Source: Amphiscolops sp. MND2022
Taxonomy: Eukaryota
DNA length: 64,000 bases
Direction of reading: 5' to 3'
Assembly (NCBI GenBank): GCA_964187785.1
Contig: OZ076409.1
Location: forward strand, 10,852,001 to 10,916,000
Shown here: piece by piece, positions 18,770-41,600 of the stretch
How the letters are laid out: each line of letters begins with the position of its first letter
Numbering within the stretch: the stretch's first letter is position 1
Program-made: the position numbers and the translations under genes
The notes under the pieces: model-generated
Database searches by the model: none
What the model was told of the DNA's origin: nothing
The model's input: only the letters and a program-made list of their open reading frames with translations

Positions 18770-19050
18770 GGCTGACAGGGTCACAAATTTTCACAACTTT
18801 TCAAACTTTTCAACAATTGAGACTTTTCGAACTTTGTCAGAATCAGTCAGAAGTGTGATCAATGAATACATTAATGAATTTCGTATTTTGTTTATGTTTT
18901 CAATCAACCACCGAAAGTTGTAGTGACGAAATTTCCATTCAAGTTTTTATGCTCACAAAGCAATTGAAGCAACAAAGAAAATGGCCTTGATTCGTTTACC
19001 TAAAAAAGACTGGTACGACCTTTGAACTATTGACCTTTACCAATTCGGAA

Positions 19051-20092: not shown

Positions 20093-20556
20093 GGCTCTTT
20101 TCTGCCCCCCCACCACCAAAATTTTTGATAGTAAAATTCCTTAAAAACTTCAGACTAGCCCAATTTAAAGCGAAACCTTCTTTCATAACAGGATGTTAAC
20201 GTCTACTAGAATAGTTGTTTGTTTAACCAAAGCATTTTTTACACATTTTGTTTATAATTATGTGTTCGTATTCACGGTTTTTCTTCACCTCTCTTTCAAA
20301 CATGCGTGACCACATAGGAAAAAAGTGTGAACAAAGTTTGTATCTCAATTTTAAAAAGTCACCCTGAGAAAAAATTTTAAAATGAAACTTTCTGGCTTAT
20401 TTTCATGTCTTCTTGTTATCAGATTTTCATTAATTTTCCAAAAAAATTCTGGTGGTGAGAAAATTTTTTCTCAGGGTGACTTTTTAAAATTGAGATACAA
20501 ACTTTGTTCACACTTTTTTCCTATGTGGTCACGCATGTTTGAAAGAGAGGTGAAGA
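20093..20556. repeat. Merlin-like MITE rearranged by a perfect 97-bp inverted duplication (20282-20378 / 20460-20556)
   Basis: The two arms are reverse complements with an 81-bp spacer; the right TIR is truncated. Confidence 0.8.
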
Positions 20557-21123: not shown

Positions 21124-21533
21124 GGAACTTTTTCCTTTCCCCCCCACACTTTTCAAGATGATGTTTTTGCAATTAATTATATCTCAATTGCGTTTCCAAT
21201 GAAACAGTTCAGTTTTAAATTTATTCTCAAGGTGATAGTTTAGGATTCAGATACAAACTTTGTTCACACTTTTTCCCTATGTAGTTACGCATTTTTGATG
21301 AAGAAATCAACAGCTTCCTGTTTTGAGTCATCAATAAACACTCAATACGAACATAATTAGTCAAATTGTGTGAACAATGTTTTGTTCAAGCGGAAAACTA
21401 CTCTAACAGTGTGGAGACAACAAAACAAAGGAAAAGATTTATTCGAAGAAATATTGAATGATATAGTCAAATATAATCTTTTATGTTGAGTTTGTTTTCT
21501 TTAAAAAGTGTGGGGGGAAAAGGAAAAAGAGCC
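21124..21533. mobile_element. Merlin-like MITE
   Basis: GG..CC termini, TIR, exact 8-bp TSD CCAGTCTG (21116-21123 and 21534-21541). Confidence 0.8.
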
Positions 21534-21564
21534 CCAGTCTGACCATAGCCTGGGCCATATATGG

Positions 21565-23005
21565 TGTGATAATCCTCCTCGTCGGATTCTTCGTTAAAGA
21601 TAACTGTTGCGTCTAGTGTTGTTTCATTTTGGTGTATAGGCTTAGCGGGATGCCTTAGATCTCTCACTTCTGAGGCTTTGAGGGGGATATCTTCGTTTTC
21701 AGAGTCTATACTTTCGTTATCAGATGCGTTTACTCCCATAGACCTTTTACCCTTGGATCCCGATGGTTGCATGTTTTCTATCTCATTCATCTCAGATCTA
21801 GGATTAGTTGTCATAGATGTGCTTTTATTGGTTTTTATCTCCATCAGAATCGCATCTAATTTGTTCTCCATTTCTTCTCTCATTTTAGTGATTCTATCGT
21901 TGTTTTTCTGTTCAAAAATCTCGGTCCAAGCTTGAATTTCATTACTGACTTGGCTGGGTTCAACTAGTCTGGGTCTCAAATCAGTTTCACCTAAACTTTC
22001 TTGACTTTGTAAATTAACATTAGTTAAAGTTTCATTACCTTGACTTGGAGTTTCTATGCGTACTTCGCTTGTTTCTCTCTCCGGGGACGGAGTTTCTAAC
22101 CTTCTGGACCTTCGATTTCTTCTATTTCCCATCTTGCTCAAGAGGAAAATTGGGTTGAAGTGCAGAAAGAATTTGAATTTATTCGTCAATGTTGTGAAAA
22201 CAATTCGGGTGAAACAAAGAGTTATCAAGGAAACTGCTTTTACAGTGTTTGGGTTTATTGTTACAGAGCAACTGTCTCTGGTACCAGTTATATTTCAACT
22301 GAAGTAAACTGCACTTTTACAAATGAAAAAATCACAAAGCATGACACTCAATTTTTGGGTTGTCATCGATCCAAAAATACTATAAATAGACTTACGTCAG
22401 GGTGACGTAATTCTATTTATAACTTACAAATAGTAATTGCATGACTTCCAATAATCTAACTATGCTAAAGCAACAAGTCCCTGGGAAACCGCTGAATGCC
22501 GCACATACGTCATCCAGTTTTCCGCATAGTGACGTATGATCAAAGCTGATTAAAAGCACCAATAAAACATGTTATAAGTTAGAATCCGCATGGTACCGCA
22601 TATGCGTTACTCGGATTACCGCATAATGACGCATACTCATCGTTACTAAACTCACACGGTAAAGTGTCAATGGCGTTATGTTCACAAAATTAGTTCAGAA
22701 AAGACGTCACGTTATTCTAGCTTCGAAGTTAATGAGTGCATATGTTCATTCATGTCAACAAAATGAAAGCATCAATGTTTAAGGCATTTGTCAAAACGTA
22801 AACATCAAACTATAAGATTAAAGAGTTTGCATGACATTTTCAAGGTATCAACTGAAAATTAAATCAACATAAATAACAAAAGGAAGTTGAGAGTGTTTAA
22901 GAGTTTCAAGTCCTCGAGTTGTTTTAGGGTTCTTTTGGAGATGACTAAGTATTCTCGTTTAGGGTTGTTGCCCAACAGCTCCAGCACAACTGTGGGGTTT
23001 TGACA
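21565..23005 (-). repeat. 3' LTR
   Basis: Matches 35852-37292 with about 5 substitutions. Confidence 0.97.
22381..22421. promoter_or_regulatory. LTR dyad with two opposed TATA boxes and two CRE-like sites (also at 36668-36708)
   Basis: TATAAATAGA-C-TTACGTCA-GGG-TGACGTAA-T-TCTATTTATA is a 41-bp near-perfect palindrome. Confidence 0.6.
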
Positions 23006-23991
23006 GTCCTGCACTTTTAAACGAGAATAGAGCAGCTTCAAAACCATCTATAAAAGCACGGGATCTTACTCCACGGTCCCTTACTGTCTCGGTGTCGTAG
23101 GCGGTTGCTATTAAATATTCGCTCAAAATTTCCAATGCTATTTGATCGTAGCACTTCCCGCACCAATCGCAAAAGCCTGCTACTTTCGGCATCACGGTGG
23201 GGAACAATCTGTGCATCTGTCTTTCACTGGTTGGGATAAGTAGCAAATTGGTACTATGTCCCACATGAAAAGGGAAATTAAATACCTGTTGGTTATTGGC
23301 CACTTGTCCATTCTTCCACTGTTTGGGGGTATCTGTATCATCAATGGGGCGTTGTTGTAGACTACCATATTGTCCACTGAAGTAGGGGCTGTCATTTCTT
23401 GTTGGTTATAGTTACTCGGGTAGACTGTTTGATGATGGTTATTGAAGATATTGATTGTATCATTTGGAAGTGACTTGCATTAGCCACGAAGTTCGGAGGG
23501 TAGGTTGCAGCTGGCCTGTTCACTGGTACGCTCCTTTGAGGATTGTCCCGGGGCGTTGGTAAAATAGCAGCTGTTGGTCTCCCATAGCTGTTTGTCGAGC
23601 CTTCCTCCCTAACTTGAGGTTCCCAAGGTGACATTGGGGAATCTTCTAGTTCAGTGTCAATGAATGAGGTGGATGGGGATTCGTATATATGTTGATCTTC
23701 TTCCATCAAGTCCACTAACTGGCGCTCAATTCTGGTTCCAGAAATGTCGATCACTTCGTCTTCTCTTGATCCTCTTGTTGAAGTAGGAAAAAGGGAAGCG
23801 GTCGCTGCTCCCATAAAGGCGGTCATGACATCAGATCGGGGGCCGCCAGGCCTGAATCGATCTTCTAACTCCGACACGTCTCCAGGATGGACAATAACTT
23901 CATCTCCAGAGTCACTTGAGACGTCAATTATGGCGGGGGACAGAGAAGGTAGCACCAGTTCTTCCTCAAGATTGAATTGTAGATTCTCCAT
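22959..23991 (-). pseudogene. Accessory ORF3 (~344 aa if two -1 shifts are repaired): acidic poly-SIM-like N-terminus, N/Q/P-rich linker, Cys/His C-terminus ending inside the LTR
   Basis: ORFs 23392-23991, 23192-23395 and 22959-23303 each lie in the -1 frame of the previous one; motifs IIDVSSDSGDE, EDEVIDISG, LVDLMEED and CDWCGKC. Confidence 0.6.
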
Positions 23992-24910
23992 TGGTATCGT
24001 GTGATCAGATAGTTTTGAAGAATGAAAATTACGAGCTTTATTGTTTTGGATTATCCCAATTGAGGGTTATTTCAGATGAGCTACTGCTTCTAAGTTTCTA
24101 ATGAGACCTTATGGTAGTCGTCCCATAAATCCCAGTTGTTTCCGATGATTCCCGCGGAAATGCTGAGCGTCATGATTTCTATCTTATCTGATACCCTTAT
24201 ATGGGTTTTAAGGAAATATAGTCGGATATTTCAAAGAGATGAGTTTGATCTGTATCCATCAATGAGGTGTAAACAATTCGATTTCAAGTGTTTTCTCAGT
24301 TTCATCTTGTAATATCACACCTCTTGCTGTTCACTATCACACTGAGTTGATGATTTAAATGATTTATCAACAATTTTCTTCCTATTTAGGAAAGTTAATT
24401 AGGTTTACAGTGAAATAATTATTCATGTTGTTTTGAACAGGGTTAATTCATCCAATATTACATGACTGAGTTGAAAGAAAATAATGAAAATGTTTCAGGA
24501 AAAAGTTTCAAACAGATGTATCAAATATTAAAATATGAGTTCGTCTATCTAATACATTCACACTTTCATCAGTCCTGCACTCAAAAAATGGCACAGGGGA
24601 GTTATATCTAACAATTTTTCAATCATTTTAGATTTCAAGAAAGATTAACATATGACGTTGCCACATAACAAGTGCCATATATCCTGGTATTTTCAGTTTT
24701 CTCATTCGAAGGTAAATTCATGTTTCCGTACATCAAATACTGCTCATTGCCTAACAGTTCACTATTTGCTTAGAATAAGTTTGTTTTAATCACATGTACT
24801 GCACATCTTGCCACGTAGTATTATTTGACTCTGTGTAGTCAAGAATGAATACTATTACGTAATTTCGTAATTGACTGTTTCTTTCTTCACTGTCCGCTGA
24901 TATCTACAAT

Positions 24911-25094
24911 TCCGCATGGTACCGTATATCCAACATCTTGTGATTCCGCATGGTGCCGCATACACGGCGTTCATAATTCCGTATGATGCCGTATGCTCGG
25001 CACTCGTATTTCCGCATAATGCCGCGTAATGTTGTGTCTGGAATCTATGATTCCGCATAATGCCGCATTTTATATATTATAATACTGTATAAAA
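24911..25094 (+). promoter_or_regulatory. Array of five TCCGYATRRTRCCGY motifs followed by TATAAAA; putative promoter of the antisense gene
   Basis: Motifs at 24911, 24945, 24978, 25011 and 25052; TATAAAA at 25088; the same motif clusters in the LTRs and at 28328-28465. Confidence 0.55.
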
Positions 25095-25513
25095 GCCACG
25101 TGCTCTTTTGTTCACTCTCGCTTGTAATGAGAATGACTGGTGAGTCAGTCGTTTACGTCAATTATGTAATCTTTCACTCTAGCAGAAGTGATTGACATTT
25201 AATTGACCAATCAGATTTGAGAACCACTCTATTTCCGTGTACGATATCTGTCACATTTTGCTCTTTTGCCTTTTCTTGTACGCCACGCCTTTTCAATTTC
25301 TTGTGAATTAAACATTCCTTTCAATTCTTCGATCACAGTCTTTTCAGCTTATTCTTGGAAAAAGTATAGTCGTAGTCATAGTCAGTTTCTTTAACAATTT
25401 TCTCTTGAATACTGCACTTCCGAAACTTCTTCTTAACTCTCATTAAAAGTGCTTCCTTATTCTGCATTGGATCATTGCTCATTGTTTTGTATTGTTGTTA
25501 TCCTTCATTCGGG

Positions 25514-28500
25514 ATGGAATCTACTAGTCGGAGGAAATCGCGAAAAGATCAAATTTCAAGACGAGTGCCAGGATCGTGGGGATACAAATCTCCTACAGAG
25601 ACGTCTCCGGGTTGGTTCAACTTTTGTTTTGAGTTTTGATTTGTAGTAGAATTTGTTTCGGTTGAGGGATCATCGTGCAAAGCTGGCCAGGCTTGCAGAA
25701 TGAAGTAACTAATTCACATTAGTCGATTTGTTTAATTTAGTGTGAAAATAATTTTGTCACACATTGATTTTTTGGGGCGGAAGTAGCTTTGTGATTTTTA
25801 ACCGCGTCCGGTTTCAAAGTTAATTCAATGCTACTTCCTGTAATTCTTTTGCCTTCGCTTCCGCTTTAAGCATTTGAACTTGTTTCAGTTGACCTGGGAG
25901 CGACTCAAACTTCACCAGCACGATCACCGACAAAAGTCTATACACCTCTAGAAGCTGTGCCACCAACAACTCAGAATCCTCCCGAAGATTTACCAATCCA
26001 GGAAACTTCCACAGGAAGTAACGAAGGGATTGAACGAGTTCTCGCCACAAGTTTGGATGAATCCGCAGGGTCAGGTCAACTTTCGATCCACGATACTACT
26101 AATGGTTCTTCAGAGATACCCATTGAGGAAATTGAATTGTCCGACAAGAATGTTACTGTGACTGAAGACAACGATCAGACTTTGGCAACCACCACTGAAC
26201 CGAACGTTGAAGAACTGCCACAGGTTACTTTTACCACCAACTCTCCTCGCTTCACTGAATTCATAAACATGGTCCGAGATGCAAATACCTCCAGTCCAAA
26301 ATTGAATAGGCCTGATATTGATCAACCCCATACTTCTTCTAAAGGAAATCCGCCGACTGACCTGGTAGAAGGGGAAAACAGAGAAAAAGACGAAGAGCTG
26401 CCTGAGTCCAATGAAGATATTCCTGATACCTCACATGCCAGAGACAGTGTTGAACCCGAAGAAGAAACAATACAACAAGTTACTGTCACTCGGCAAGAAG
26501 TTTTAGCGCTTTCAAGTGTATTGGATAAGATCCCGAAAACTGCTCTAGTGAGGGGAGATCGTAACATTCCAGAAAACATTACTCTCACTGTTGTTGGGCA
26601 GGCTCAGAACTCACCAGTTCAAGATGTACAAAGTACCAGTCGGGGTGAAACAACAGAACATCCTCCCGATGATTTGCGTCCCCATTCCAGTTCTGAAGAA
26701 CTTCCGTTGGCACGGGGCAAAAGACGAAAACCAAAGTACTCGTTAACTTCAGCCATGTTGAAGAAACATCCTGTCGTCCAATATTTTGCCACTGGACCAC
26801 TCGACAGAAACAAAAACCCATACAAATGGTGGTGTCGAGTTTGCAAAATAGAGCTGTCTCTGATGAGCAGAGGGGTTTTGGAATTATTGTCTCATTACAA
26901 AACTGAAGCTCATTTGACAAAGGAACATAGGATCCGCTTAGAAACTCCTGGGTTACCTCTATTCGACCAAGAAGAAAATGAACTGCGAGGAATAGGACTG
27001 CAAGAAGCGAAACGAAGAGCTAGAGAAGCACATCCAATCGCTCCTCAATTAGATGGGTTCCGTTTATTTGTCGGGCAAGAACGGTTGCCTGAATTCAGTT
27101 CTGTTACCAGCCCGAGTGAGAGTGTTCTGGCTCAAATCTGCATTCTCGAGAATGGATTCCGCCATGGTGGACACATAAATGTCCTGCTCGGACTCTGGGA
27201 GGACATGACAAGATTGTCACCAGGCAGCAGTGCCCAAATCACCACTCACAAATGGAGTCAACACCGCATTTATGTAAGTACTTTTCTATTCCCCTTTTAT
27301 TCTACCCATGTTTTGAGGGTTACAATTCTATCCTTCTGTTTAGGCCATCGTTACATATATTTTCCGCGAACTAATGCATTATTGTGTCGTGACTACTGGG
27401 CAGCTGGAGTTTGTTCTCTATCTTATGAGAGTTCTCTTACCAAAAATTTCCTCTTCCTGAGTTTCTGGTCGGGGAACGTCTATTACCAAGTTTGTCTCGG
27501 GTCTGGGACCCGCGGGTTATTGTTACCCAAAAGACTTCTTTCCTTGCTCTCGTCTTACTTCAGCTTGTCAGAGAACCCACCTTCTTGCCTTAGCCTCGTT
27601 AATTTTGACGAGAGGTTAGCAACTTGCCTTACTCGGTCACTGTCAGGGAAAACTTGCCCAATGGTCGTCAATTGGTTTGGAGTTACTGAGTTAGAAAAAT
27701 GTTTATCCATGCCAACATCCCGGATCCTTGAGCGACACGACTTCAGGACCATATTGGATTTCTTGCTCATGAAACTGAGAACCGCGCTGGACCAAGAGTG
27801 GTTGCAGTCAATACCCGTATTACACAAGGTACACTTTTCCGTTTTACTTTGTCTCAAAATGCACTTTCAACTTCTAGCGTCATGGTACCCCTCTTTTTAG
27901 TGCGTAACACACTTAACATACACTCTAGAGGAGGCCTCATCCATCATAGCCCTGTTATCTGCACACTGGGACAGGGTGTTGGATCACCTGAATCGGGTTT
28001 CCCGATTACCAACCTTCCGGTACCACATGCGTGAGGTAATATTTCGTTTTTGGATTCCTTTTGTAGCCAATTTGTTGATTAACCAATTTGTTGATTAACC
28101 TTTTCGGTTTTTTAGCCCAGTACGTTAGACGAATGTTTCCGGCTCGATACAGCGTACCTGGCCCGGCTTTTCGTCATTCGCTGTGTTTTGGATCACTGTT
28201 AGTATTCGTTTATCACTTGTTTTCACTGTGCTTTTCTATCAGTAGTATGGCTTTTCGTTGTAATTTCTTTGCGCAGCTGTGACTTGCGATTATCATTAGG
28301 AATTGCTTCTTTGAATAACACACCAAAGCTGCGGGATGCCGTATATACGTCACCCTTTTTTCCGCATGATACCGCATATGCGGCGTCCCTGTTTCCGTAT
28401 GATGCCGCATATTTTGGTGAAGGGTAGATCGTAAAACAGCTAAAACCGTAGGATGCCGCATATGCTCTAAGTATATGCCGTACTATACGGCGTAGTGGAG

Positions 28501-29681
28501 TTGGTGGCACCCTAACTAGGTGTGACTCATGTTTTGCTTTTATCGTTTTTGGATGTTTTGCTATTTGTGTTACAGACAACTCGTCATTTTCTGAAGCACC
28601 GACTGGATATGAAGCTGGATTTCGCCTGTTTAACCAGTTTGCTGTATTCGTTTATTCCCAGCTCCAAAGTATACTTCCAGATAGTATCCTTGGCAATGTC
28701 TCCGACTGGGACAGTTATCTGAAGCTCGATTTAACCCAGCCTGGTCTCCCTTTCAAGAGCTGCAATGAATTCGTTCTGAACTCTGATTTTCATGAGTTAG
28801 TAACTTCCAGCAAGCTGCCAAGGCCCAGTAAATTCATCGAACAGTCGTTTGCCTTCTATAAAGCGTTTTGTCGAATACTGTTGCAGCATAAGATTGCGAC
28901 TTCGGATTTGATTAGAGGTTTATCCAGTTTCGATTCTGCCATGATGCTTGATGGTGAAGAGAAACATTATCTGCCTGCGATTGAGATGCTGACGACCTAC
29001 TTCTCCTCCCATGGCTGGATCACAGTTAGTGATAAAACAAAGGCTGTGAGTCAAAATAGGTCTTTGGTTACGAAATTTCGTTCAAGTCAAGTCTGCCGGC
29101 CAGATGATTGGTTTGAATTCCTTTGCTCCTGTTATGAATTACATTGCCGACCAGAGCTACATCGGGTATTTTAGTAATCCTGTCTGTGTTTGCCACCGAA
29201 AGCGAAGATCACTAGTCAATTTGTTGTACCCATGCCGGAATTGGGACCCGACGAAGATGTATTTCATTCATGCATTTCGAGTATCCAGCTGGCCTACAAG
29301 ACTGTCCCAAACGTGTCAAGTCTCTTCCGAGACCCTCGATCGCTCAGCCGTGTGTTTCGTCTTATCGGGCGAGGACGTGATTTATTAGAAGATCGCAAAT
29401 TTTCTGTTTGGAACTTTTTAAAAGGTAGCGGACCAAGTCGAGTCAGATTTCAGACTAAATTAGAAAGTGCATACAAGAGTGCCGTTGTGAGACGAGAAGA
29501 AGATCCTTTCTCTGTCGACCCCGATGTTTCTGTTTTGAGTAAAGTATCCAGCACTACGAGTTCCCCAGATTCTCAGCCAGTTCTTGGGAAGGCTACAGTG
29601 TCTCTATCCCGCTGCGTCGAAGGAGGAAATGATGGTGCCAAGAAAACAAAAGGGTCGAGTGGAAAAGCTAAGAAGAACTAA
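25514..29681 (+). pseudogene. Antisense five-exon gene encoding a BED-zinc-finger / hAT-transposase-derived protein (~1069 aa); disrupted in this copy
   Basis: Exons 25514-25610, 25889-27273, 27344-27828, 27901-28035, 28576-29681; all introns GT-AG. WWCRVCKIEL..ELLSHYKTEAH is BED-like; SLSYESS..FLSFW..CLG..LSLVNFD is RNase-H-like; WFEFL..PELHRVF**SCLCLP resembles the hAT dimerisation domain. Two 1-nt deletions and TAG-TAA at 29172-29177. Confidence 0.7.
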
Positions 29682-29855
29682 AGCAGTCTTGCTTCTGTAG
29701 ACTTTGTTTCTTTTGTTTTCGTCTCACAGGAGACATTTGTTATGATTATATTTCGTTTCGTCTCGCTTTATTATTATTGAGTGTGCAAGAAAAGAGAAAA
29801 ATGCTGGGAGTATAAAACCAGTATGAGATAAAGTTTTGTCTGAGAATTGTTTTCA

Positions 29856-32800
29856 TTAATATCTGTATGTGTCTGAGTAGTTTGGGTTAGGGTTAGGACG
29901 TAAGTTGTATTTATCACCACGGGTGTTTATGGGTTCTTCTTGTGATGGGATATTTTGTGGATTTTCTGGGGTTTTTTGGGTATCATCATCAAGTGAATTA
30001 TTTGCATCTTTTTGGGTTTTTTGGGTACTTTGATCATCTTCAATGATTTGTTGTGGTATTTCATTTTCATGGTTTTCATGCGATTCAGTGGTCTGTTCCA
30101 CTGGGCTCCCCCACTATTTTTTGAAGATCCTGGGGAGGGTGGGCGGTTTTCTTCGGGCATTTGAATTGGAATGTATTCTGTGTCTTCAGTATTTAATGAA
30201 TATTCTGAAGGACCATCGTCAAAAGGATTTGAACCAAAGTTCGTGTTCCATGATTGGGCATATAGGTCATCATTTGTTATAGGCATTTGGTCATCTTTTT
30301 GCCAATCAATTTCTCGAACAAAAATGTCTGCTAGGGGCGCTTGCGGAGTGAATTTCCGTAGGCGAATCCTGTGTAACAGTTGCGTTTTGTTATTCCCGAG
30401 TCTCCGGACGATGTAGTTATTGTTAGGGAGAACTTTTTCTACTTTATATGGCCCGCACCATCTGAATTCTCGGAATGGTATTTTTGTCACTTGAGTATCG
30501 GCTTTTGGGTTAAGAATGTAGCAGTAATCCGTTGTTTCGAGCGGAGCTGCTTTCGCTTTGCGGTCCTAGTAAGCTTTGTATTTGAGATATGATTGCATGA
30601 TGTTCTTTTTGGTTTGATCTTGAAGGATTTTCATGCGTTTTTGAATTTCTTCCGCCACATCTGCTTGCGGTTGGTATCGTGGGTTAGGATTGTATCCAAG
30701 TTTGTAGTCTAGGATATTGTGTGGTATCCTACCATGGAAGACTCGTGAAGGTTCACAACCGAGTGATGCATGGTATGTGGTGTTGTGATTGAGGACTGCC
30801 AAGGGGAGATATTTATGCTAGTTGTTCCTGAATTCGCCTGTTGCGGCTTTTAGGTGCATTTTCACTGATGCATGTGTTCTCTCAAGGAGTCCTATTGTTT
30901 GGGCATGTTTCATTGTTGCGTGTTTCATTTCAATTCCAAGTACTGCCGACACTTCATGAGTTACTTGTGTATCGAATTGAGTGCCTAAATCCGTGATTAT
31001 CGTTGTTGGAAGGTATGTATGTTTGCATAAGATGTCCATGATAACCCTTGATACTGCTGTTGCAGTAATACGAGTTACAGGGTAGGCAAACAAGTATTTT
31101 GAGAAGACATCTATTGCTGTGATGATATGGTCATAGCCTCCACTAGGGGGAAGGTTTGGTAAAATGTCCAATTGCAAAATGTCTTCCGGACCGAGATCCC
31201 ATTCCGGACAATTAAGAAGTTCTGTCCTTAGGAGATCATTGTTTATGCGTTTCGTTTGGATGCAGATTTGGCAATTACTAACCCATTTTTTGATGTACTT
31301 TGCCATACATGGGTAGTAGTATTTTTGTCTTGCTTCTTGAATCATTTTCGTAATTCCTGGATGGTTTGAATTATGACCATGTAAGGCTTGAAGAAATTCG
31401 TCTAGGAGTTGGATTGGTAGGAGGATTTGGTAGTGAGATATAGTTCCAGTGTCGGTATAGTATTTTCGTGTGAGAACTTCCTGTTTAATTTCTATTCGTG
31501 TTATGTTCTGTAAGTAGTGCTGGTATCGATAGTCTGATGCTAGTTCATTCTCGTCAAAAGGGTTTCCTTCGAGTTTTGCTCTGAGGTTTCTTAGGACTAT
31601 GTCGTTATTCTGCTCAAGGCGGATTCTTGCATTGTCCTTAAAGTATCCCGAAGAGCAGGAGATCAGACCTGATGTAGGTTTGTGGAATCGTTGTAGCTCG
31701 GAAACAGCATTTTCTGGATCATTGTGTGTTTCGGTTTGTGCTTGATTTCGAATGTTTTGTTTTTCTTCCCAGAATTGATTTTCGTCAATTTCATCATCTG
31801 GGAGGACATAGATTTGTTCTTCTTCGATGATGCCAGTTGATTGGATGTTCACCTCAATCGCTTTCGTGTGAATGTCGTTGCGGATTGTCAGTTCCAGTTT
31901 TTCTGTTGGGTCGACTTCCGTTCTAGATAAGAAGTCGGCAGCAGTGTTCATTGTTCCAGCTACGTGGGCGATCACGAAGTTGTATTGCAATACATAATCG
32001 CAGGCATTCCAAAGTGCTGGAGGGATCATTTTTGTTTGAAAAAATCGGGTTACAGATCGATTTTCAGTAAACACGATTACTGGGAAGGTACTACCCCACA
32101 TGAGATGTCCGAATTCAACAAATGCAAAATATATTGACAAAAATTCCTTTGCATAAATTGACATTTTCGTCTGTGTAGGGTTGAAAGTTTTTGAACCAAA
32201 AGCTATGGGTGCATATGTTTTGCGTTTTGATTGGAGCTTCTGGTTTGGGTCATCCTCTATCATGATAGCATATCCAGCTGCTGTGAAACTTGCATCGGAC
32301 ATGACTATAAGTTGCTTATTTTTCAGCGGTTGTTTTAGAGCTAACTGGCAAGAATTTTCTAGGAGTTTGTTGAGGTTCGTGAAGTCTTCTACCAAATTTG
32401 TCGGTACATAGAATTTGGAAGTTTCTTTGAGGAGTTTGAAGAACGGTGAGAGCCGTTCCGAAAGTCGTGGTATGTAATTTCGGTAATAGTTTAAAAATCC
32501 GATATACCTCTGCAACGCCTTTTTTGATTTCGGAAAGCGAAGCTTTGAGAGGAAGTCTTTTACTTTGTCGGCTTGAGGGGCAACTCCATCTGGTGTGATT
32601 GTGCGTCCCAGAAAGTCGACCTGTTTCACTCCAAAGTGGCCTTTGGACATGGAGAGTTTTAGTCCTGCATCGCGTATGCATTCGAACACAGTTCTGATAT
32701 TCGTACACAGTTGTTTTGTGTCATTTGCCGCAATGCCAATGTCATCGACATACTGTGCACATTGGTCTGCTTTAATTGCTCTGTCCAGGTACTCTCTCAT

Positions 32801-34740
32801 AAAACTTGAAAAGGCAGAAAGTGATCTGCTGAGGCCCTGGGCAAGGCGACGATAAGCGAATGTTCTACTGGCAAAGTTGAAGGCGAGCATTTGGATGGAT
32901 TGGTAATCCGCCATCTGCAGGCAGTGGTAAGCTTGGGAGCAGTCCAATTTGCAGAAAAGCTTTTTCCCTGCCATATGTTGGGCTGCATCCGATAAGGTGC
33001 TTACTGGGTGGTTGTTGTTGACGTAAGCTTCGGTGATGAGGTTGTTGATTTTTCGTAGGTCAACAAATAGTCTGAGGCGCCCGTTAGGTTTGCGTTGTGC
33101 AAATATTGGGCTTGCATATTTAGAAAAAGGTAGTGTTGTAATGATGCCATACTTATGTAGGAGTGCAAGTTCTACTGTAATGTCATCTTTAAGATTGATA
33201 GGAGTTGGCAAACTTTGGCTGTATGCAGGTCTGTCATCATTTGGCGTTAGTTTTACTTTGAATTCACGGTTTATGCCAATGTCGAAACGGTGTCTGGCAA
33301 AAATATCATGAAATTCAATGAGGATTTCTTCAATTTCTTTCCGTTCGTCATGACTGAGTGTTGTGTCATTCCAGTCGAAGTTTGAAAGGAAAACTTTTCT
33401 GGAATTTTCATCATCTTGTGGGTTTAGTTTTTCAAGTTCTTTGAGTTCTAGGAGTTCTTTGTAGATTCGTTGTTGAATTGGAGTGTATGTTGCTGGGTCA
33501 CCTGGTTCTTCAGGAGTAGGGAACCAGTATGTCTCCTGTTCTGAGTTCGTTTTTGGAACTTTGAGGAGTTCGTTTATGTAGACGTCCGTTGTTTCCTCAT
33601 GTTGTATCATGAAGGACAGTAACGCTGGGTCTACTGGCTGTATATGTTTGATTTGTTCTGGTGTCAGTATCTTGAAATCCGCTAAATGGGTATCAAGGGT
33701 TATTGTATATGGTAACTCGGAGAAATTAATGATTTGGTATCCAATAGCATTATTGTTGACTGTACTGAGTGACGCTGTGATGAAGATGCTATTGTGATTT
33801 TCAAACTGATGTGATGGGGTGACTATTCCAGTTGCGTCATGGTCCATCAGATGGGGCATTCTGCTTGCAATTGCTAGGGTTTCGCCTGGTTGCAAGGTAT
33901 ATGTATTTTCTGCAAACAATGGTGTTGCTTGTCGTATTGATGTTTGGGTGTCGGGTTTAAGCTGCATTCAAAGGTAGGGGAAGGTTAGGATGCCTTGGGT
34001 GACATCAAAGATTGCGTTATTTCTACGGAGAAAACACAATCCAATTAACGGGTTCGGTAAGTTTTTCATAATGATGAAATTTTCCTTCAACATGAAGTCG
34101 GCCACTTCAAATTCAAGTAGAACAGTACCAATCGGGACTTCCAGTTGTCCATTGGGCACCATAATTTGAAAATTTGGTGGGGGACCAGTTTCTTTGATTG
34201 CTTCATTTGCTAGCAACTTGATTTTGTTGAGGTCTTGTTCGGAGATTGCACTTGTAAGGGCTCCGGTATCAATAAGACCATCAAGAGTAAGTTTTTCGAA
34301 GTCCATTGGAATGTAGTACATGTGGCGTTTTCGCTTCAATGTCAAGGAGGTTGAGATTGGTAGATATGACAAATTTCGTTCTTTGTCAAATTGTATGTGT
34401 TCAGAGAGGTCTTCATTCAATAAGGGTTGTTTTTGATCATCACAAGAAGTTTTATTGTGACATGGTTTTTGATGGGAGATTCGTTGTGAATTTCGAAGTT
34501 TGGGTCTGTTTCAGGGTGGGTTGGTTGTTTTGTGAAGTAGTTGTCTGGTGCATCTTGAAAGAGTTCATATAGTTCTTCTGGTGATGTTTCCAGGGTTGAT
34601 TGTTGAGAGTTTTGTGTTGTTGAGTTCGTGTCAAAGGTTGGTGTTTTTGTGGGTTTTGGACTCAGTTGATGCTGCCAGTCACCGGCTGAGTTTGGTTTTT
34701 GTGGTGATTTTGTGTAAAGGCGTGGCGTTTCTAGTTTAAA
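29856..34740 (-). pseudogene. pol: Gypsy pol (protease, dUTPase-like segment, RT, RNase H, integrase)
   Basis: LIDTGA, YVDD, RNase H SDAS, HHCC (HGHNSNHPG..CQIC) and DDE core. Essentially one frame with premature stops at 33968, 30818 and 30566 and -1 shifts near 34450 and 30110. Confidence 0.95.
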
Positions 34741-36419
34741 TCCTTCGACGAGGATTGTTGGTTTCTTTCGATTCTGGGTCTGATTGGTTTTTTAGCTCGC
34801 TTGTATTCTTCTATAACTTTCCTTTGGGGTTCAGTTAGGTTCCATTTTGGTGGTCTATTATCCATATTGGCACCAAAATAGTAATATTCTTCTTCATGTC
34901 CCAGAGTTTTGCAATTGGGACATTTAGGTGCATCCGGATCTTCTTCTAGTTTTCTCCTTTTAGCTAATTTACGGCAGTCAGTCATCATGTGACTAGCATC
35001 TTTGCAGTAACGACATTGGTCATTTTTGAGTGTTTTGTCGGGTACTGTTTTCGGAGTTTGTTTTTTGGTTTTGTCAACTTGTTTTTTGTTAGTTTTTTCA
35101 GTGTTTTGTTCTTTTTTGGTAACGGTCACCTGAGTTTTGACGAGGGCTTCGTCGGCCTCTAGACCATTAAGTTCCATCTCTCTTTCAAGATGTTTAACGA
35201 TTTGGTCATAAGAGCCATTTTCCAGATAGGCTTGGTTGATGGATTTTTTAAGATGCGGTGGCATCTTGGCATAGAGTAGATTCTCTATCATATGGTGTGC
35301 ATTGTCACCGAAGGCTTTTTCCGCGTTTTCTTGCAAATCTTCGAGAAAATCGGGTAGCTTTTGGTTTTCTGGGTCAAATGTTAGTCGATGAAATTTATGT
35401 TTTGCCGAAGCACTTGATTTTGGTTTGACGTACTTTCGGCGGAAAACTTTTAGGATGTCTTCCAGTGTTGTTGTGGGTGTTCTCTGGATGTTTTTGAAGG
35501 TTTTTAACGCCAATCCTCTGAGATGTGCATAAAAGTGGTTGATCTTCATTTCTTCTGTGAGATTTGGCTGCATTTTGAGGGTTGTGTGGAATAAGTCCTC
35601 GAAATATTCGAATTTTTTATTTTTTTCGTTTTTTCCATTGAATGTGAGTGTGTTTTTAGGGTGAAATAGGGATTGTTGTGAGTTTTTATTGGCTAGTTTT
35701 TCTATAGCCTGGGCAATTTGGTTGACCGGGTCAAGTGGTTTTGTTGTGGATGTTGAAGTGTTGCGGTCTGCGTGGGATCCTAAGGTGTCGTTTAGAAGTG
35801 GGGTATTTTGAGAGCTTTGTCTATGGAATGGTTTGTTGGCTCCTGTCACCATGTGATAATCCTCCTCGTCGGATTCCTCGTTAAAGATAACTGTTGCGTC
35901 TAGTGTTGTATCATTTTGGTGTATAGGCTTAGCGGGATGCCTTAGATCTCTCATTTCTGAGGCTTTGAGGGGGATATCTTCGTTTTCAGAGTCTATACTT
36001 TCGTTATCAGATGCGTTTACTCCCATAGACCTTTTACCCTTGGATCCCGATGGTTGCATGTTTTCTATCTCATTCATCTCAGATCTAGGATTAGTTGTCA
36101 TAGATGTGCTTTTATTGGTTTTTATCTCCATCAGAATCGCATCTAATTTGTTCTCCATTTCTTCTCTCATTTTAGTGATTCTATCGTTGTTTTTCTGTTC
36201 AAAAATCTCGGTCCAAGCTTGAATTTCATTACTGACTTGGCTGGGTTCAACTAGTCTGGGTCTCAAATCAGTTTCACCTAAACTTTCTTGACTTTGTAAA
36301 TTAACATTAGTTAAAGTTTCATTACCTTGACTTGGAGTTTCTATGCGTACTTCGCTTGTTTCTCTCTCCGGGGACGGAGTTTCTAACCTTCTGGACCTTC
36401 GATTTCTTCTATTTCCCAT
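34731..36419 (-). CDS. gag: Gypsy gag (562 aa from ATG at 36419)
   Basis: Capsid-like region and zinc knuckle CRYCKDASHMMTDC plus a degenerate second knuckle; ends T-TTA-AAC-TAG. Confidence 0.9.
   Translation of the reverse strand: MGNRRNRRSRRLETPSPERETSEVRIETPSQGNETLTNVNLQSQESLGETDLRPRLVEPSQVSNEIQAWTEIFEQKNNDRITKMREEMENKLDAILMEIKTNKSTSMTTNPRSEMNEIENMQPSGSKGKRSMGVNASDNESIDSENEDIPLKASEMRDLRHPAKPIHQNDTTLDATVIFNEESDEEDYHMVTGANKPFHRQSSQNTPLLNDTLGSHADRNTSTSTTKPLDPVNQIAQAIEKLANKNSQQSLFHPKNTLTFNGKNEKNKKFEYFEDLFHTTLKMQPNLTEEMKINHFYAHLRGLALKTFKNIQRTPTTTLEDILKVFRRKYVKPKSSASAKHKFHRLTFDPENQKLPDFLEDLQENAEKAFGDNAHHMIENLLYAKMPPHLKKSINQAYLENGSYDQIVKHLEREMELNGLEADEALVKTQVTVTKKEQNTEKTNKKQVDKTKKQTPKTVPDKTLKNDQCRYCKDASHMMTDCRKLAKRRKLEEDPDAPKCPNCKTLGHEEEYYYFGANMDNRPPKWNLTEPQRKVIEEYKRAKKPIRPRIERNQQSSSKDLN
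35834..35851 (-). other. Primer-binding site
   Basis: TGGTGACAGGAGCC.. directly follows the 5' LTR end; priming tRNA not identified (close to tRNA-Leu-type PBS). Confidence 0.7.
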
Positions 36420-37292
36420 CTTGCTCAAGAGGAAAATTGGGTTGAAGTGCAGAAAGAATTTGAATTTATTCGTCAATGTTGTGAAAACAATTCGGGTGAA
36501 ACAAAGAGTTATCAAGGAAACTGCTTTTACAGTGTTTGGGTTTATTGTTACAGAGCAACTGTCTCTGGTACCAGTTATATTTCAACTGAAGTAAACTGCA
36601 CTTTTACAAATGAAAAAATCACAAAGCATGACACTCAATTTTTGGGTTGTCATCGATCCAAAAATACTATAAATAGACTTACGTCAGGGTGACGTAATTC
36701 TATTTATAACTTACAAATAGTAATTGCATGACTTCCAATAATCTAACTATGCTAAAGCAACAAGTCCCTGGGAAACCGCTGAATGCCGCACATACGTCAT
36801 CCAGTTTTCCGCATAGTGACGTATGATCAAAGCTGATTAAAAGCACCAATAAAACATGTTATAAGTTAGAATCCGCATGGTACCGCATATGCGTTACTCG
36901 GATTACCGCATAATGACGCATACTCATCGTTACTAAACTCACACGGTAAAGTGTCAATGGCGTTATGTTCACAAAATTAGTTCAGAAAAGACGTCACGTT
37001 ATTCTAGCTTCGAAGTTAATGAGTGCATATGTTCATTCATGTCAACAAAATGAAAGCATCAATGTTTAAGGCATTTGTCAAAACGTAAACATCAAACTAT
37101 ACGATTAAAGAGTTTGCATGACATTTTCAAGGTATCAACTGAAAATTAAATCAACATAAATAACAAAAGGAAGTTGAGAGTGTTTAAGAGTTTCAAGTCC
37201 TCGAGTTGTTTTAGGGTTCTTTTGGAGATGACTAAGTATTCTCGTTTAGGGTTGTTGCCCAACAGCTCCAGCACAACTGTGGGGTTGTGACA
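35852..37292 (-). repeat. 5' LTR
   Basis: Direct repeat of 21565-23005, adjacent to the PBS. Confidence 0.97.
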
Positions 37293-38615
37293 TATGGTTC
37301 AGTCTATGATTAACCTGGAACCATAAACCTTTATGGCCCAGAGTATGGTCAGCCTGCAGGCATGAAAAGAAAATTAGGATAATGTAGTCAACTGACGCAT
37401 GCACTGATGAAATTACAAAATATTCTTCAACCAAAGGTCCAATACAATCATCAAATTGAAAACAAGGTAGCAATCATCAATTTTTGGCAGCTTTTGCTGA
37501 AATATTGGTATTTTTTCTCGAAATAGTCAAAAATCACACTTCAAAGTGGGTAGTGCTACAACAAGAGAGTTAGTTATTAACTAAGGAGTGGCTGAAAATA
37601 AATTGAGTGACTATAGTTTGTCTTTAACTCCGTTTAGAGCTCAACGGAGTTCTGACCTGCAAAGTATCGTTCGCAGATACAAAAGGTCGAATTTGGCTCT
37701 ATTGCCCTCAGCCTATAAAGCTGGCTGTTCTCAATAATTGAAAGTTTTTGTTTGGGTTGCATGTCACGTCAACCTGCGTTTGGAACAAAAATTCATGATT
37801 CCAGGCTGATAATAATCTGGACCATAAATGATTCCAGGCCGATCATACTCTGGACCATTTATGAATCCAGGCCGATCATGGCAAATCGTGGTAAGGAAAT
37901 TTGTATAATTTGTATGGTGCCATAATATGGTCAGATTATGATCGGCATGGTCGGGAAACCCGGGACTGGTTTTTTCTGTTCACCCATCTCCACCATCACA
38001 ATTTTTTGAGAGTAATTTACAAAAACTTTTCGAAATTGCCCAATTAAAATGAAATCTTTTTCCAAAATAGAAAGTTATCATCTATTGGAAGAGTTCTTCG
38101 TTTGAACAAAACATTTTCACACATTTGGACTGTGATTACGTTCGAATTAACTGTTTTTTTTTCGTGATTCAAAAAAGGCAACTGTTGATTTCTTAATCGA
38201 AATTGCGTGACTTCATAAGGAGAAAAAGTGGGAACTAAGTCTATATCCGGATCCCAAACTGTCAACCTGCAAAGACAATTAACTTTGTGTCGTAATGTGG
38301 TTTGAAAAGATTTTATTCTCTAATAAGTTCAATTCATGTTTCCGTTTTATTTCAGTATGGTCCGTACAACACAGTAAAAAATTATTCAAACTAATAGTTG
38401 ACACCAGTTAAAATACAAGTCTATTATGTAAGAGTTTAATTGAGTTCTTTCACCGGTCATCGGTAACGCATATTGAAAGTTTCTTTTCTTCGGTGTTATG
38501 TAACCGAATCTCGGAACCAATGAAATTGAAGTAGCTTCCTCGGTAACGAACAGTAGATGTTTACCGAATAATAACAAGTGACGATGACGTCACCACATCC
38601 CCTCTTTTAGTTGCC

Positions 38616-41600
38616 TCATGCGAATCCTGCTTGATACTTCTGGGTTTGGGTTCGTAATCTTTTCGGTCTATCATTGGTTACTGCGGTATGTTCTTCGGTC
38701 AGCACCGGACTCAAGTTATCAGCGTTACTAGTCTTCGGCGTGACTGGATCTTGAATAGCATCATGTCCAATGTTTGGTTGAGGTTCCACTTTGACTACGT
38801 CTGATGATGGTAATGATGCAATTTGTCCGTCATTTGCCAAAATTGTTCGGTTGTTGTCATGAGCCAATCTGTGTTTCGTCCTTTCCGGATAATGTAAGTC
38901 AATTCTTTTGGCTCATGGTTTGAAGTGGGTTTGTACAGCACTTTTTGAGCAACTTCATAAAATCCAACAACAGAGTTTCTCAAGAATTTTCCAAGTAGTA
39001 ATTTGGCAGGAGTGTCACCTCTAGCATTTGAAGAATTTCGATGACTGAACAAAATTTTAGCACTCAATATAAGCAGTCAGTGAGCAACCAATGTCTTTAT
39101 TGTAAAATTTCAGGCTTCTTTTCAATGTTTGAACAGCTCTCTCGGCCAGTCCATTGCTTCTAGATGAACACAAAGGTGTGTCAATCTTTTTGCATCCTTG
39201 TGCTGACAACCAGTGTTTTAGGTATTTGGATACCAACTCCTTTCCGTTATCGGACACAACCGTATATGGTATTCCAAACCGAGAAAAGATTGTTCGGAGA
39301 CATCTGACCACGTTCCACGTTGATCGGTCTGTGCACAGGAAAGCTTCCAGCCGACCGGACCCAGCATCAGCAATGATCAGAATGTTACCGTGGTCTGCTT
39401 CATAAAGCCAGTCCATATGCAGTCTTTCCCATGGAGCGCAGTCTTCCCATTTGTCAGTAGAATCAGTCAGTCTCGATCGGTTTTTGCTGCATTCTGGACA
39501 GTTTTTGACAAATTGTTCGATATCGTTGTCCATAAACAGCCACCACGCATTTTTTTCACAAAGTTTTTCAAAGCATTAATTCCTTGATGGACGTCGTGAA
39601 ATTTTTCAATTACTTGTTTTCGGCATGTAATTGGTATAAAAACTCTCGATCCATTATATATCATGTCATTTTGTACTGTTAATGCATTTGAAACATTTAT
39701 AAAATATTTCTCCATTTTGGTACAGTTTTTCCAAATACCGGTTCGAATTCGGTTCATCACCCGTTTTGTGAACTCATTCGATTGCATCTCTTTCCGTAAT
39801 TTCTCGGCATCAATCACGGGTTTCTCAAATGTAGCCATTCCTACCGCAACTAAGTCGTCTTCATCGTCTTTGAACCGTAAGCGTGACATTGCATCGGCAT
39901 GACCAATATAATGACCGGGAGTGTATTGTACATCATAGTTTAGGCCATCAGGGTTACTGCCCATCGCGCAAGTCTCGCTGATACAACTTTCGGTATCTGG
40001 TTGCTCGGATTGAAGATATATTGTAGTGGCTTGTGATCTGTTCTCAAAGTGAACTTCCTCCCCAATGGAGATTGTCGAAGTCGTGTCACTGCGAATACTA
40101 CAGCAAGCGCTTCCCGTTTAATGTTGCTGTATTTCTGTTCTGCCGATGTCAAGTTTCGAGATATGTAGATAACCGGGTGATCATTCTGCGTTAATGCAGC
40201 ACCAATGGTTTTTTCGGATGCATCCGTTGTGAGAGTCACTTCTTTATCCAATGAGTACAGTTGTACCAATGGTTCACTTGTCAGCTCCTCTACCAGTGAC
40301 TGGAATGCCTTTTGACATTCATCGGTCCACTTGAAAGGTTTATAGTTTTGCCGGAGTTCATTGGTACACCGCGTCTTGGCCGCATAGTTTGAAATCCTTC
40401 GCCCAAAGTAGTTGATAACTCCGATAAAAGCTTCAACTTCTTTGACATCCTTCGGTGGCTGCAGTTGAAGAAGTTTTTGAACGTGCTTCTGTTCCGGCGT
40501 TACTCCTTCCGATGAAATTCATAGCCCAAAAAGGATAACGTTGTTGAGATTGATACGCACTTATCTTCATTCACGGTGAAGTTCTTTGCTGCCAGCCGTT
40601 CTTTGACCGCATTGTATCTTTTCCGGAGTTCGGCCTCGGTTACACCGAACAACAAAATGTTCTTGATATGCAACGCAACCATCCAGTCCTTTGAGCACTT
40701 CTTCGATAGCTTGGGGAAAATCGCCGCTACATTTTTTAATCCTTGTTGTAACCGGGTGACTCGAAAAAGGCCTCGGTTTGTATTCACTGTACACACATAT
40801 TGCGATTTTTCATCAAGTGGAATTTGCCAATAAGCTTTAGACAGATCACTTTTCGCAAAAAAATTAGCGCCTGACACTTTTGAGAAAATGGTTTCAATAC
40901 AAGGAAGGGGGTAGGCTTCGGTACTAATTTTATCATTTACATGTACTTTATAGTCAGCTACATTCGTAGTTTATCACTTTTTTTCACCCACACAACCGGG
41001 GAACAATTATCTACACCACCAGCTTCAACCGGTTCAAGGATTTCCAACAATATTATTTCATCAATTGTTTTATTGATTTTCCGTTCAAGTGGCAACGGTA
41101 CTTTCCGTGCCGCGCAAATCATTGGTTTAGCATCGGGTTTCAATTTAATGGAAGCTTTAGCACCTTTCACTGTTGGTAGCTTTTCGGATGCCTTCATCTT
41201 TGAAGCACCGGTCAATGGACTCTTTGCTATTATTTATTAGGAGTCGGAAATAATTTTCGACTACTTATGCAATCGTGCTGTTTTTTTTGTTTTTTTTTCT
41301 CCCGACCTTTTCATCAAAAATTTCAAATTTCTCAAAAACTGTCCATACGATTTTCACAAAATTTTGCACAGTCATTCTACACCCAAAGGGGCCTCTGCGT
41401 GTGCAAAAGCATCAAAATCGTATGGCCTGGATGTGAGAAACATAGCCAAAATTAGCCCGAAAAAGCCCAAAAAACAGCCATTTTTCGACTTTTTTCAATT
41501 TTCTCAAAAACTGTCCATACGATTCGAACGAAATTTTCTACAGTTATTCTACACCACATTAGAGTCCTATATGTGCAATGGCATCAAAATCGTATGGCTA

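Follow-up and report, generated by a model that had tools for sequence, protein, structure and literature searches.

Antisense extra genes are already known from Gypsy-type long terminal repeat (LTR) retrotransposons. In plants, antisense extra open reading frames (ORFs) between pol and the 3′ LTR, termed aORF-3R, are described for maize Grande (gene23), rice RIRE2, and Silene/angiosperm Retand (PMC7264820 and PMC11963269). According to the same sources, the plant aORF proteins are nuclear or predicted to bind DNA, tandem-repeat arrays adjoin the genes, and the genes are present in most copies. They also report an own promoter for the Grande aORF and, for the Retand region, tandem-repeat arrays together with a predicted DNA-binding TRP28 domain. 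In fungi, the Boty-like elements of Botrytis and Sclerotinia harbor the antisense gene brtn (Zhao et al. 2011, Virology 417:248, as cited in PMC7264820). Here, we analyzed a 64-kb stretch of the genome of Amphiscolops sp. MND2022 (contig OZ076409.1; hereafter the window, whose first letter is position 1), which contains a Ty3/Gypsy element at 21565-37292. This element is an env-less Ty3/Gypsy retrotransposon of an animal genome, belongs to a multi-copy lineage, and represents a richer animal variant of the known arrangement. Seven Wnt-family matches in the 1.07-Gb genome mark the host as an animal. New here are the element's occurrence in an animal, an antisense gene of this size and number of exons, the predicted RNase H-like fold of its product, an accessory gene in sense orientation, a shared motif defined to the base, and the exchange of a cassette between copies. 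A first-pass annotation of this DNA had taken it as established that typical Gypsy elements have no genes other than gag, pol, and, in some cases, env; given the plant and fungal examples (Grande, RIRE2, Retand, and Boty; PMC7264820 and PMC11963269), this view is outdated.

In most copies of the family, an antisense coding region lies between pol and the 3′ LTR, as in aORF-3R elements. The likeness to the plant elements comprises position, orientation, a long region between pol and the 3′ LTR, short repeats, and presence in most copies. Unlike them, the window element resides in an animal, lacks TRP28 (PF04195), and carries a much larger gene with five introns; it also has a second, sense accessory gene and a motif common to the LTR and internal sites. 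The word "intron" does not occur in the texts of PMC7264820 and PMC11963269. Boty with its brtn is likewise a Gypsy element from outside the plants that carries an additional antisense gene downstream of pol; the gene in the window encodes 1096 amino acids (aa) with a predicted RNase H-like fold. No animal example of an antisense extra Gypsy gene was found in the literature searched, most subscription journals lying outside it.

The structural description of the element and its accessory genes is one in which we have high confidence. A single element of 15.7 kb on the minus strand is flanked by two LTRs of 1441 bp with TG..CA ends (21565-23005 and 35852-37292, both on the minus strand), which are 99.65% identical in the window self-comparison (5 mismatches, 0 gaps). 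The same five bases, TATGG, stand on either side as a target site duplication (TSD; 21560-21564 and 37293-37297). Since gag, protease, reverse transcriptase (RT), RNase H, and integrase are all encoded on the minus strand, the right-hand repeat is the 5′ LTR and the left-hand repeat the 3′ LTR. A TGG-initiated sequence resembling a primer-binding site (TGGTGACAGGAGCC..., 35830-35851, minus strand) abuts the 5′ LTR, and the polypurine tract is weak (AAAAGTGCAGGAC). Pfam placed gag-asp_proteas, RVT_1 (8e-20), RT_RNaseH, Integrase_H2C2, rve, and Integrase_p58_C in this order on the minus strand, pro-pol extending over 29927-34791. This is the protease-RT-RNase H-integrase order of Ty3/Gypsy elements (Metaviridae), with integrase downstream of RT. 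Thus, LTRs, TSD, and Pfam domains agree on one TSD-bounded element with gag-pol plus an extra region, as the first-pass annotation had proposed. The gag-pro-pol span is ~29927-36419 in the window; in a second, full copy (copy B, C1:79.21 Mb), pol ends at the window equivalent of ~29857.

The gag frame (34731-36419, minus strand) begins at an ATG (36417-36419) that lies 873 nucleotides (nt) into the 5′ LTR, and it reads across the primer-binding site; its match to Ty3_capsid is weak (Pfam, E 0.0085). Because the gag ATG sits inside the LTR, the 3′ LTR also carries an open frame that is no gene: the ORF at 21467-22294, a candidate U3 gene, was rejected, as it repeats the first 190 codons of gag and continues into the flank. 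A slippery heptamer, TTTAAAC (34734-34740), directly precedes the gag stop, and the protease frame is at −1. A second −1 shift between pro and pol, considered for copy B, was dropped after the comparison revealed a 1-nt deletion in copy B, so that only the TTTAAAC heptamer at gag/pro stands.

Between pol and the 3′ LTR, the element holds 6.9 kb of extra sequence (23006 to ~29856). Its unusual length is the one feature that could suggest a chimera made only once, by nested insertion or by an assembly artefact at this locus. The other copies refute this idea, whose probability we regard as negligible: the region recurs in separate insertions, each flanked by a TSD of its own. In an LTR search of the genome, 40 of 40 scored matches were full length (1913 first-look candidates). 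Twelve LTR pairs, 97.0-99.7% identical within pairs, were examined; in eleven, the spacing was 14207-14298 bp (14287 in the window), and one pair was spaced 16683 bp. Perfect 5-bp TSDs, each different, flanked 11 of the 12 pairs, and the twelfth matched at 4 of 5 positions. Copy B is collinear with the window element end to end. Inverted repeats linking the borders of the extra region, or of the cassette described below, were not found, nor were terminal inverted repeats (TIRs). Since it is collinear in independent insertions and is bounded by no TIRs, the extra region is neither absent from other copies nor a nested insertion with TIRs of its own, the two outcomes that the first-pass annotation had named as fatal to its proposal; it is an integral part of the element lineage. 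The comparisons between copies rest on partial copies plus one full copy, copy B. A more distant family, L070, has the same gene order and a pol 83% identical in nucleotides and 92% in protein; its accessory proteins have diverged further, with 40% identity in the sense accessory protein (ORF3) and 37-50% in the antisense exons.

An env gene with signal peptide and transmembrane segment was not found, in line with the first reading of the window: among the accessory proteins, the highest Kyte-Doolittle mean over 19 residues was 1.41, and no Pfam env family was matched.

The antisense gene lies on the plus strand. Comparison of the window, copy B, and the diverged L070 led to a model of six exons with a complete coding sequence of 3291 nt, equal to 1096 aa. 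Exon 1 (25514-25610, 97 nt) contains the ATG and has a GT donor in all three versions. Exon 2 (25889-27273) encodes an acidic, disordered N-terminus, a basic patch, and a CCHH finger, and ends at a conserved GTAAGT donor. Exon 3 (27344-27828) encodes the predicted RNase H-like fold. Exon 4 (27901-28035, 135 nt) is free of stops in 15 of 15 copies; exon 5 (28116-28197, 82 nt) has the donor GTTAGT in all three versions and specifies 27 of 27 identical residues in copy B. Exon 6 (28576-29681, stop at 29679-29681) encodes an all-alpha domain and a low-confidence tail. All five introns are of the GT-AG type, and their position and phase are the same in the three deeply diverged versions. When six other copies were conceptually spliced, two gave an uninterrupted 3291-nt frame. 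Exon 3 is 486 nt long and open in 20 of 30 copies, and its AG/GT borders are retained in 29 of 30. The spliced antisense gene that the first-pass annotation had seen is thus supported by the conserved splice signals, and its predicted exons are now delimited.

A 676-codon plus-strand ORF at 25870-27900 was rejected as a single gene; it consists of exon 2, a read-through intron, and exon 3. Its 52 unnamed homologues align up to an invariant "VS", the read-through of the GTAAGT donor, and the alignment resumes at "FVS", the read-through of the TTTGTTTCAG acceptor. The ORF stays open because the 70 nt of intron 2, combined with a 1-nt deletion private to exon 3 of the window copy, give a length divisible by three. 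In-frame read-through of intron 2 is also seen in P0005, an ENA protein of a diverged family. For exon 6, 70 homologues and 341 cluster representatives were found. A genome search with the finger domain gave 150 of 150 scored matches at E ≤ 8e-77 (7214 first-look candidates), in identity classes near 98, 80, 65, and 58%. With thousands of copies, the spliced 1096-aa gene of this element could be mistaken for a host gene in annotation.

The ratio of nonsynonymous to synonymous polymorphism (pN/pS), pooled across all copy pairs, was 0.19 for antisense exon 2 (15 copies), 0.11 for the conserved domain of exon 2 (30 copies), 0.16 for exon 3 (27 copies), and 0.15 for exon 4 (15 copies), with a range of 0.11-0.28 over the antisense exons. 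Wrong-frame controls gave 1.23 and 1.37 (16 and 30 copies). For gag, the ratio was 0.12 in the internal part (14 copies) and 0.33 in the LTR-borne part, so that conservation of the antisense gene is comparable to that of other element proteins (0.11-0.28 versus 0.12 for gag). These values indicate that the antisense gene is under purifying selection across many copies. The antisense orientation may also be the reason why the five introns persist through reverse transcription, since the sense genomic RNA does not present them as introns.

As far as sequence profiles and models indicate, the antisense protein is a zinc-finger protein with a predicted RNase H-like fold that is probably inactive. 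It is acidic over its first ~270 residues, where S, T, and P abound, and the basic patch comes next. In the homologue alignment, the finger C-x2-C-x16-H-x5-H is invariant and is preceded by two tryptophans; this pattern raises the question of a BED-type finger, and Pfam gives no zf-BED match. AlphaFold 2 (AF2) modeling of exon 6 yielded a mean predicted local distance difference test (pLDDT) score of 62.3, with residues 10-205 all-helical at 83-98. For exons 2-3, the natural read-through protein P0005 was modeled (mean pLDDT 50.6; 60-77 in the exon 3 part). The predicted topology of exon 3 is beta-beta-beta-alpha-beta-alpha-beta, and nearly all top structural matches of this domain are RNase H-like, the best being integrase of simian immunodeficiency virus (SIV; 6rwl, Z 7.2, root-mean-square deviation [rmsd] 3.2, 81-82 aligned). 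Further matches were retroviral integrase cores, a terminase nuclease, Pelota, Argonaute PIWI, the RNase H-like domain of Prp8, and RuvC/RuvX. The catalytic triad is not conserved: the position in strand 1 is E or Q, and the position after strand 4 is D in three lineages and S in L070.

Database searches with the accessory proteins gave little else. Pfam assigned no meaningful family to the accessory ORFs of the window, L007, L069, and L070 or to 15 distant cluster representatives, and the accessory ORFs matched no family at E ≤ 1, TRP28 (PF04195) included. The ESM Atlas search with the finger domain returned no usable match, the PDB sequence profiles A1, A2, and A3 gave nothing below E 3, and Foldseek of the exon 6 model against PDB and BFVD gave nothing at E ≤ 0.001.

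The Hermes hAT transposase (8edg) was the top Foldseek match of the exon 2-3 model (E 3e-3) and the top VIA match of the exon 6 model (Z 5.3, rmsd 6.8, 175 aligned, chain residues 368-609); in the VIA search with the exon 2-3 model, it was outside the top 50. Like hAT transposases, the antisense protein would have the order zinc finger, RNase H-like fold, and helical domain. The matches are weak, and neither the zf-BED nor the hAT dimerization domain (Dimer_Tnp_hAT, PF05699) was detected by Pfam in the accessory ORFs. A conserved DDE triad, TIRs, and an 8-bp TSD are also missing, and hhalign of the exon 6 profile against hAT C-terminal halves from the same genome gave a probability of 0.2%. 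Membership in the hAT superfamily was therefore rejected, and Hermes is retained as a weak lead only. The genome is rich in genuine hAT transposases (150 of 150 scored PF05699 matches pass; 2215 first-look candidates), and none of those sampled (e.g., L071-L076) resembles the antisense gene at the profile level. A transposase or integrase-type ancestry of the antisense protein is possible on the strength of the models.

Such an ancestry bears on the view that the antisense gene is a passenger, either captured from the host by transduction or left over from a nested DNA transposon, that does nothing for the life cycle of the element. The RNase H-like fold and the finger suggest descent from a transposase or integrase, and transduction and nested insertion are listed among the possible origins of extra ORFs in PMC7264820. 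A passenger should decay; instead, reading frame, introns, and low pN/pS are kept across sub-families only 37-50% identical, always attached to a Gypsy pol. The gene is present in every full-length copy examined, and 12 of 12 LTR pairs span at least 14.2 kb. We thus consider a mere passenger improbable, and the argument for it speaks to the origin of the gene, not to its maintenance.

A second shared feature of the element is a 16-nt motif. CCGCATNNTGNCGCAT, with at most one mismatch, has 11 matches in the 64-kb window, all inside the element and all on the plus strand, with an expectation of 0 (100 shuffles). The private repeated motif common to LTRs and internal sites, as noted in the first-pass annotation, was thereby corroborated. 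Three matches each form clusters in the 3′ LTR (22522-22634) and the 5′ LTR (36809-36921), at element-sense LTR positions ~370-510, upstream of TATAAATA at 585 and the gag ATG at 873. Three more (24946-25068) form an array upstream of the antisense gene, within its putative control region (24912-25216, plus strand), which also contains TATAAAAG (25088-25097, plus strand, between the motif array and the antisense ATG) and a conserved CCAAT block (25188-25216, plus strand). The remaining pair (28362-28410) lies in antisense intron 5. Motif array and CCAAT block are also found in copy B and L070. Copy B has 10 motif matches at homologous places; L070 has 13, with 7 upstream of the antisense gene and 6 in intron 5, at a period of 32-33 nt. 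Because sequence, strand, and place are fixed while the neighboring DNA has diverged past alignment, the comparison indicates that the 16-nt motif is under constraint.

The identity profile between the window and copy B (300-nt bins) revealed a sharp contrast within the element. LTRs, gag-pol, and the ORF3 region are 95-98% identical, whereas a block at ~24865-29830, with sharp borders, is only 50-76% identical. This block corresponds to the antisense gene and its upstream control region (24865-29830, plus strand). Introns and synonymous sites share the divergence, so relaxed constraint alone is insufficient to account for it and the cassettes must have a history different from that of the backbone. 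When 30 LTRs were placed in a maximum-likelihood tree, both cassette types formed clusters but not monophyletic groups, and well-supported branches require at least 2-3 changes of cassette type. By these comparisons, recombination has carried the antisense gene together with its control region, in the manner of a cassette, from one near-identical backbone to another. The pattern fits repeated recombination between coexisting sub-lineages, with breakpoints in short spacers beside intact genes. Where pol and the antisense gene converge, a small hairpin with a TATAAA core (29804-29821) is conserved between the window and copy B within diverged DNA; to call it a poly(A) signal is a guess.

Sharp borders and two diverged versions would also be accounted for if the cassette were a selfish, transposase-derived unit moving by itself between Gypsy backbones, and two stretches of the protein that do not overlap each had Hermes as their top match (Foldseek E 3e-3; VIA Z 5.3). 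At the cassette borders, neither TIRs nor a TSD were found. Both versions occupy exactly one place, with breakpoints in the spacers next to intact genes, a pattern that recombination in the course of reverse transcription would produce. Conservation is lacking at the catalytic acidic positions, and the hhalign probability against genuine hAT C-terminal halves was, as stated, 0.2%. Autonomous movement of the cassette is therefore very improbable, and we retain recombination between sub-lineages as the explanation.

The second accessory gene, ORF3, is in sense orientation. The window frames 23392-24066 and 22959-23405 are pieces of this one gene (22959-23991, minus strand), which encodes 349 aa from its ATG in intact copies and ends 47 nt inside U3 of the 3′ LTR. 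It is a single open frame of 374 codons in 10 of 14 other copies, and of 385 codons in an eleventh. The accessory ORF overlapping U3 noted in the first-pass annotation is therefore real, and a codon alignment of the 11 intact copies (pN/pS 0.31) indicates that it is under purifying selection. With 0.11-0.28 for the antisense gene, both extra genes thus gave ratios pointing to selection, the comparison that the first-pass annotation had suggested. ORF3 has 105 unnamed homologues (35-97% identity, mostly 340-352 aa) and no Pfam, ESM Atlas, or PDB-profile match. Among 36 aligned sequences of 35-97% identity, an N-terminal stretch with the consensus VIDISS-SGEEF is nearly invariant; other conserved features are an NSYGRP...LPTPR block and a C-terminal third with C-x2-C. 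Two promoter-like blocks, CCATATAAGG and TTTCCGCGGG (24151-24205, minus strand), lie ~160-215 nt upstream of the ORF3 ATG and are present in 12 and 14 of 15 copies, respectively. Both recur upstream of ORF3 in L070, where the adjoining DNA no longer aligns, which suggests that ORF3 has its own promoter.

The VIDISS-SGEEF stretch resembles a phosphorylated SUMO-interaction motif (phospho-SIM). This likeness is the starting point for the view that the accessory genes, instead of activating transcription, work against silencing by the host: ORF3 would use the SUMO-interaction-like motif to oppose SUMO-dependent heterochromatin, and the antisense unit would act as protein or as RNA (double-stranded RNA [dsRNA], feed for small RNAs, or decoy). 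The near-invariance of its hydrophobic core, serines, and acidic residues in the 36 sequences agrees with this view. The accessory proteins have diverged faster than pol (37-50% versus 92% identity), as an arms race would give, and dsRNA-mediated regulation by antisense transcripts is raised in PMC7264820. Against it, pN/pS is well under 1 in all parts tested, with no sign of positive selection at this resolution, and a pure RNA role would leave the protein-level constraint over 1096 codons unexplained. On balance, we rate this view, counter-silencing in place of activation, as rather unlikely.

Complex retroviruses have a comparable layout. The human T-cell leukemia virus HTLV-1 has the antisense gene HBZ and the regulator Tax, foamy-virus Tas acts on both the LTR and an internal promoter, and nef of human immunodeficiency virus (HIV) overlaps U3. 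The window element is similar in layout only: it has an antisense gene, a 3′ sense gene extending into U3, a shared cis motif, and a −1 heptamer after gag. Unlike these viruses, it has no env, its pol is of the Ty3/Gypsy type by Pfam, and its antisense gene appears to have introns and an internal promoter of its own. Foldseek of the exon 6 model against PDB and BFVD found no relation, and no sequence relation was seen either, between the window accessory proteins and retroviral accessory proteins.

As the best explanation overall, which we hold at slightly better than even, we propose an env-less Gypsy element with two selected accessory genes that would serve regulation. Three transcription units would exist, one driven by the LTR and two by internal promoters, one for the antisense gene and one for ORF3. 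The antisense protein, whose probable source is a transposase or an integrase-type protein, would act in the nucleus and bind DNA in a sequence-specific way, recognizing the 16-nt arrays of U3 as well as those that precede its own gene and those within intron 5 of that gene. This recognition would couple LTR and internal transcription, like foamy-virus Tas or HTLV Tax/HBZ, and ORF3 with its SIM-like motif may act on host chromatin silencing. That the element encodes its own DNA-binding regulator acting on the motif arrays is possible, at a confidence clearly short of even. The scenario in its entirety is doubtful: a zinc-finger transposase/integrase-like protein would have become the trans-regulator of the element, binding phased 16-nt arrays in U3 and two internal regions and, with a SUMO-interacting ORF3, forming a complex-retrovirus-style circuit that evolved independently in a non-infectious retroelement, with regulator and array swapped as one cassette. 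The first-pass annotation had proposed an env-less lineage with its own regulatory or anti-silencing module. The lineage and its extra region hold up, being integral, collinear, selected, and laid out like a complex retrovirus; the regulatory or anti-silencing role remains a proposal.

Several points weigh against the regulatory explanation. The link between protein and motif consists of co-occurrence and co-conservation only, and the LTR versions of the motif contain TGACG, a possible target of a host bZIP factor. The pN/pS values pool non-independent pairs; they give the direction of selection and support no significance test. The antisense coding sequence is whole in only two of the six copies examined, and the window copy is broken in every gene. 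Splicing, promoters, and expression of the element are predicted from sequence comparison. The AF2 models are weak (mean pLDDT 62.3 and 50.6), and the fold matches, at Z ≤ 7.2, are under the trust level of the tool. The homologues are all unnamed ENA proteins, and the SIM-like label of ORF3 is based on consensus motifs.

For the function of antisense extra genes, which are known in LTR retrotransposons of plants and fungi, the window family offers an unusually tractable case. It has many young copies, two selected accessory genes, an exact gene model, a candidate cis-element defined to the base, and natural cassette swaps as ready experiments. If the antisense protein does bind the motif, a retrovirus-like regulatory circuit would have arisen outside retroviruses. 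Such binding would also lend a first support to the descent of an extra ORF from the nuclease of another mobile element.

The window copy itself is young yet dead. All four genes are broken, and the inactivating lesions number at least ten. Compared with four other copies, ORF3 lacks 1 nt at ~23454 and 16 nt at ~23306. In antisense exon 3, the private 1-nt deletion lies at ~27400, where 17 of 17 other class-A-like copies have the additional base. Exon 6 contains two adjacent private stops (29172-29177), where 6 of 6 other copies have sense codons. Pol differs from that of copy B, which stays open at the sites concerned, by 1-nt deletions at ~34453 and ~30112 and by stops at 33968-33970, 30818-30820, and 30566-30568. 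This number of lesions is high for LTRs that differ at only 5 of 1441 positions (0.35%). A defective lineage mobilized in trans is one possibility for the source of this copy.

Other features of the window lie outside the element. At 18991-20004 (plus strand), 1.5 kb from the element, a 337-codon intronless frame matches Pfam SNAP (soluble NSF attachment protein, E 2.5e-20) and may represent either a gene with one exon or a retrocopy. Another Gypsy pol, in a degraded state (39057-40970, minus strand), has rve, Integrase_H2C2, RT_RNaseH, and RVT_1 split over four frames; direct repeats of 288 nt, 91.7% identical, at 38288-38571 and 43744-44031 may be its LTR remnants. It is adjoined by a tandem array at 41321-42393 with a period of ~172 bp and units 86-93% identical. 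A head-to-tail duplication at 11916-14657 has a 1373-bp unit (99.7% identity) and a 149-codon ORF per unit, which has no Pfam match. Just upstream of the element, a palindromic segment of 275 nt (20282-20556) is 83.8% identical to its own reverse complement.

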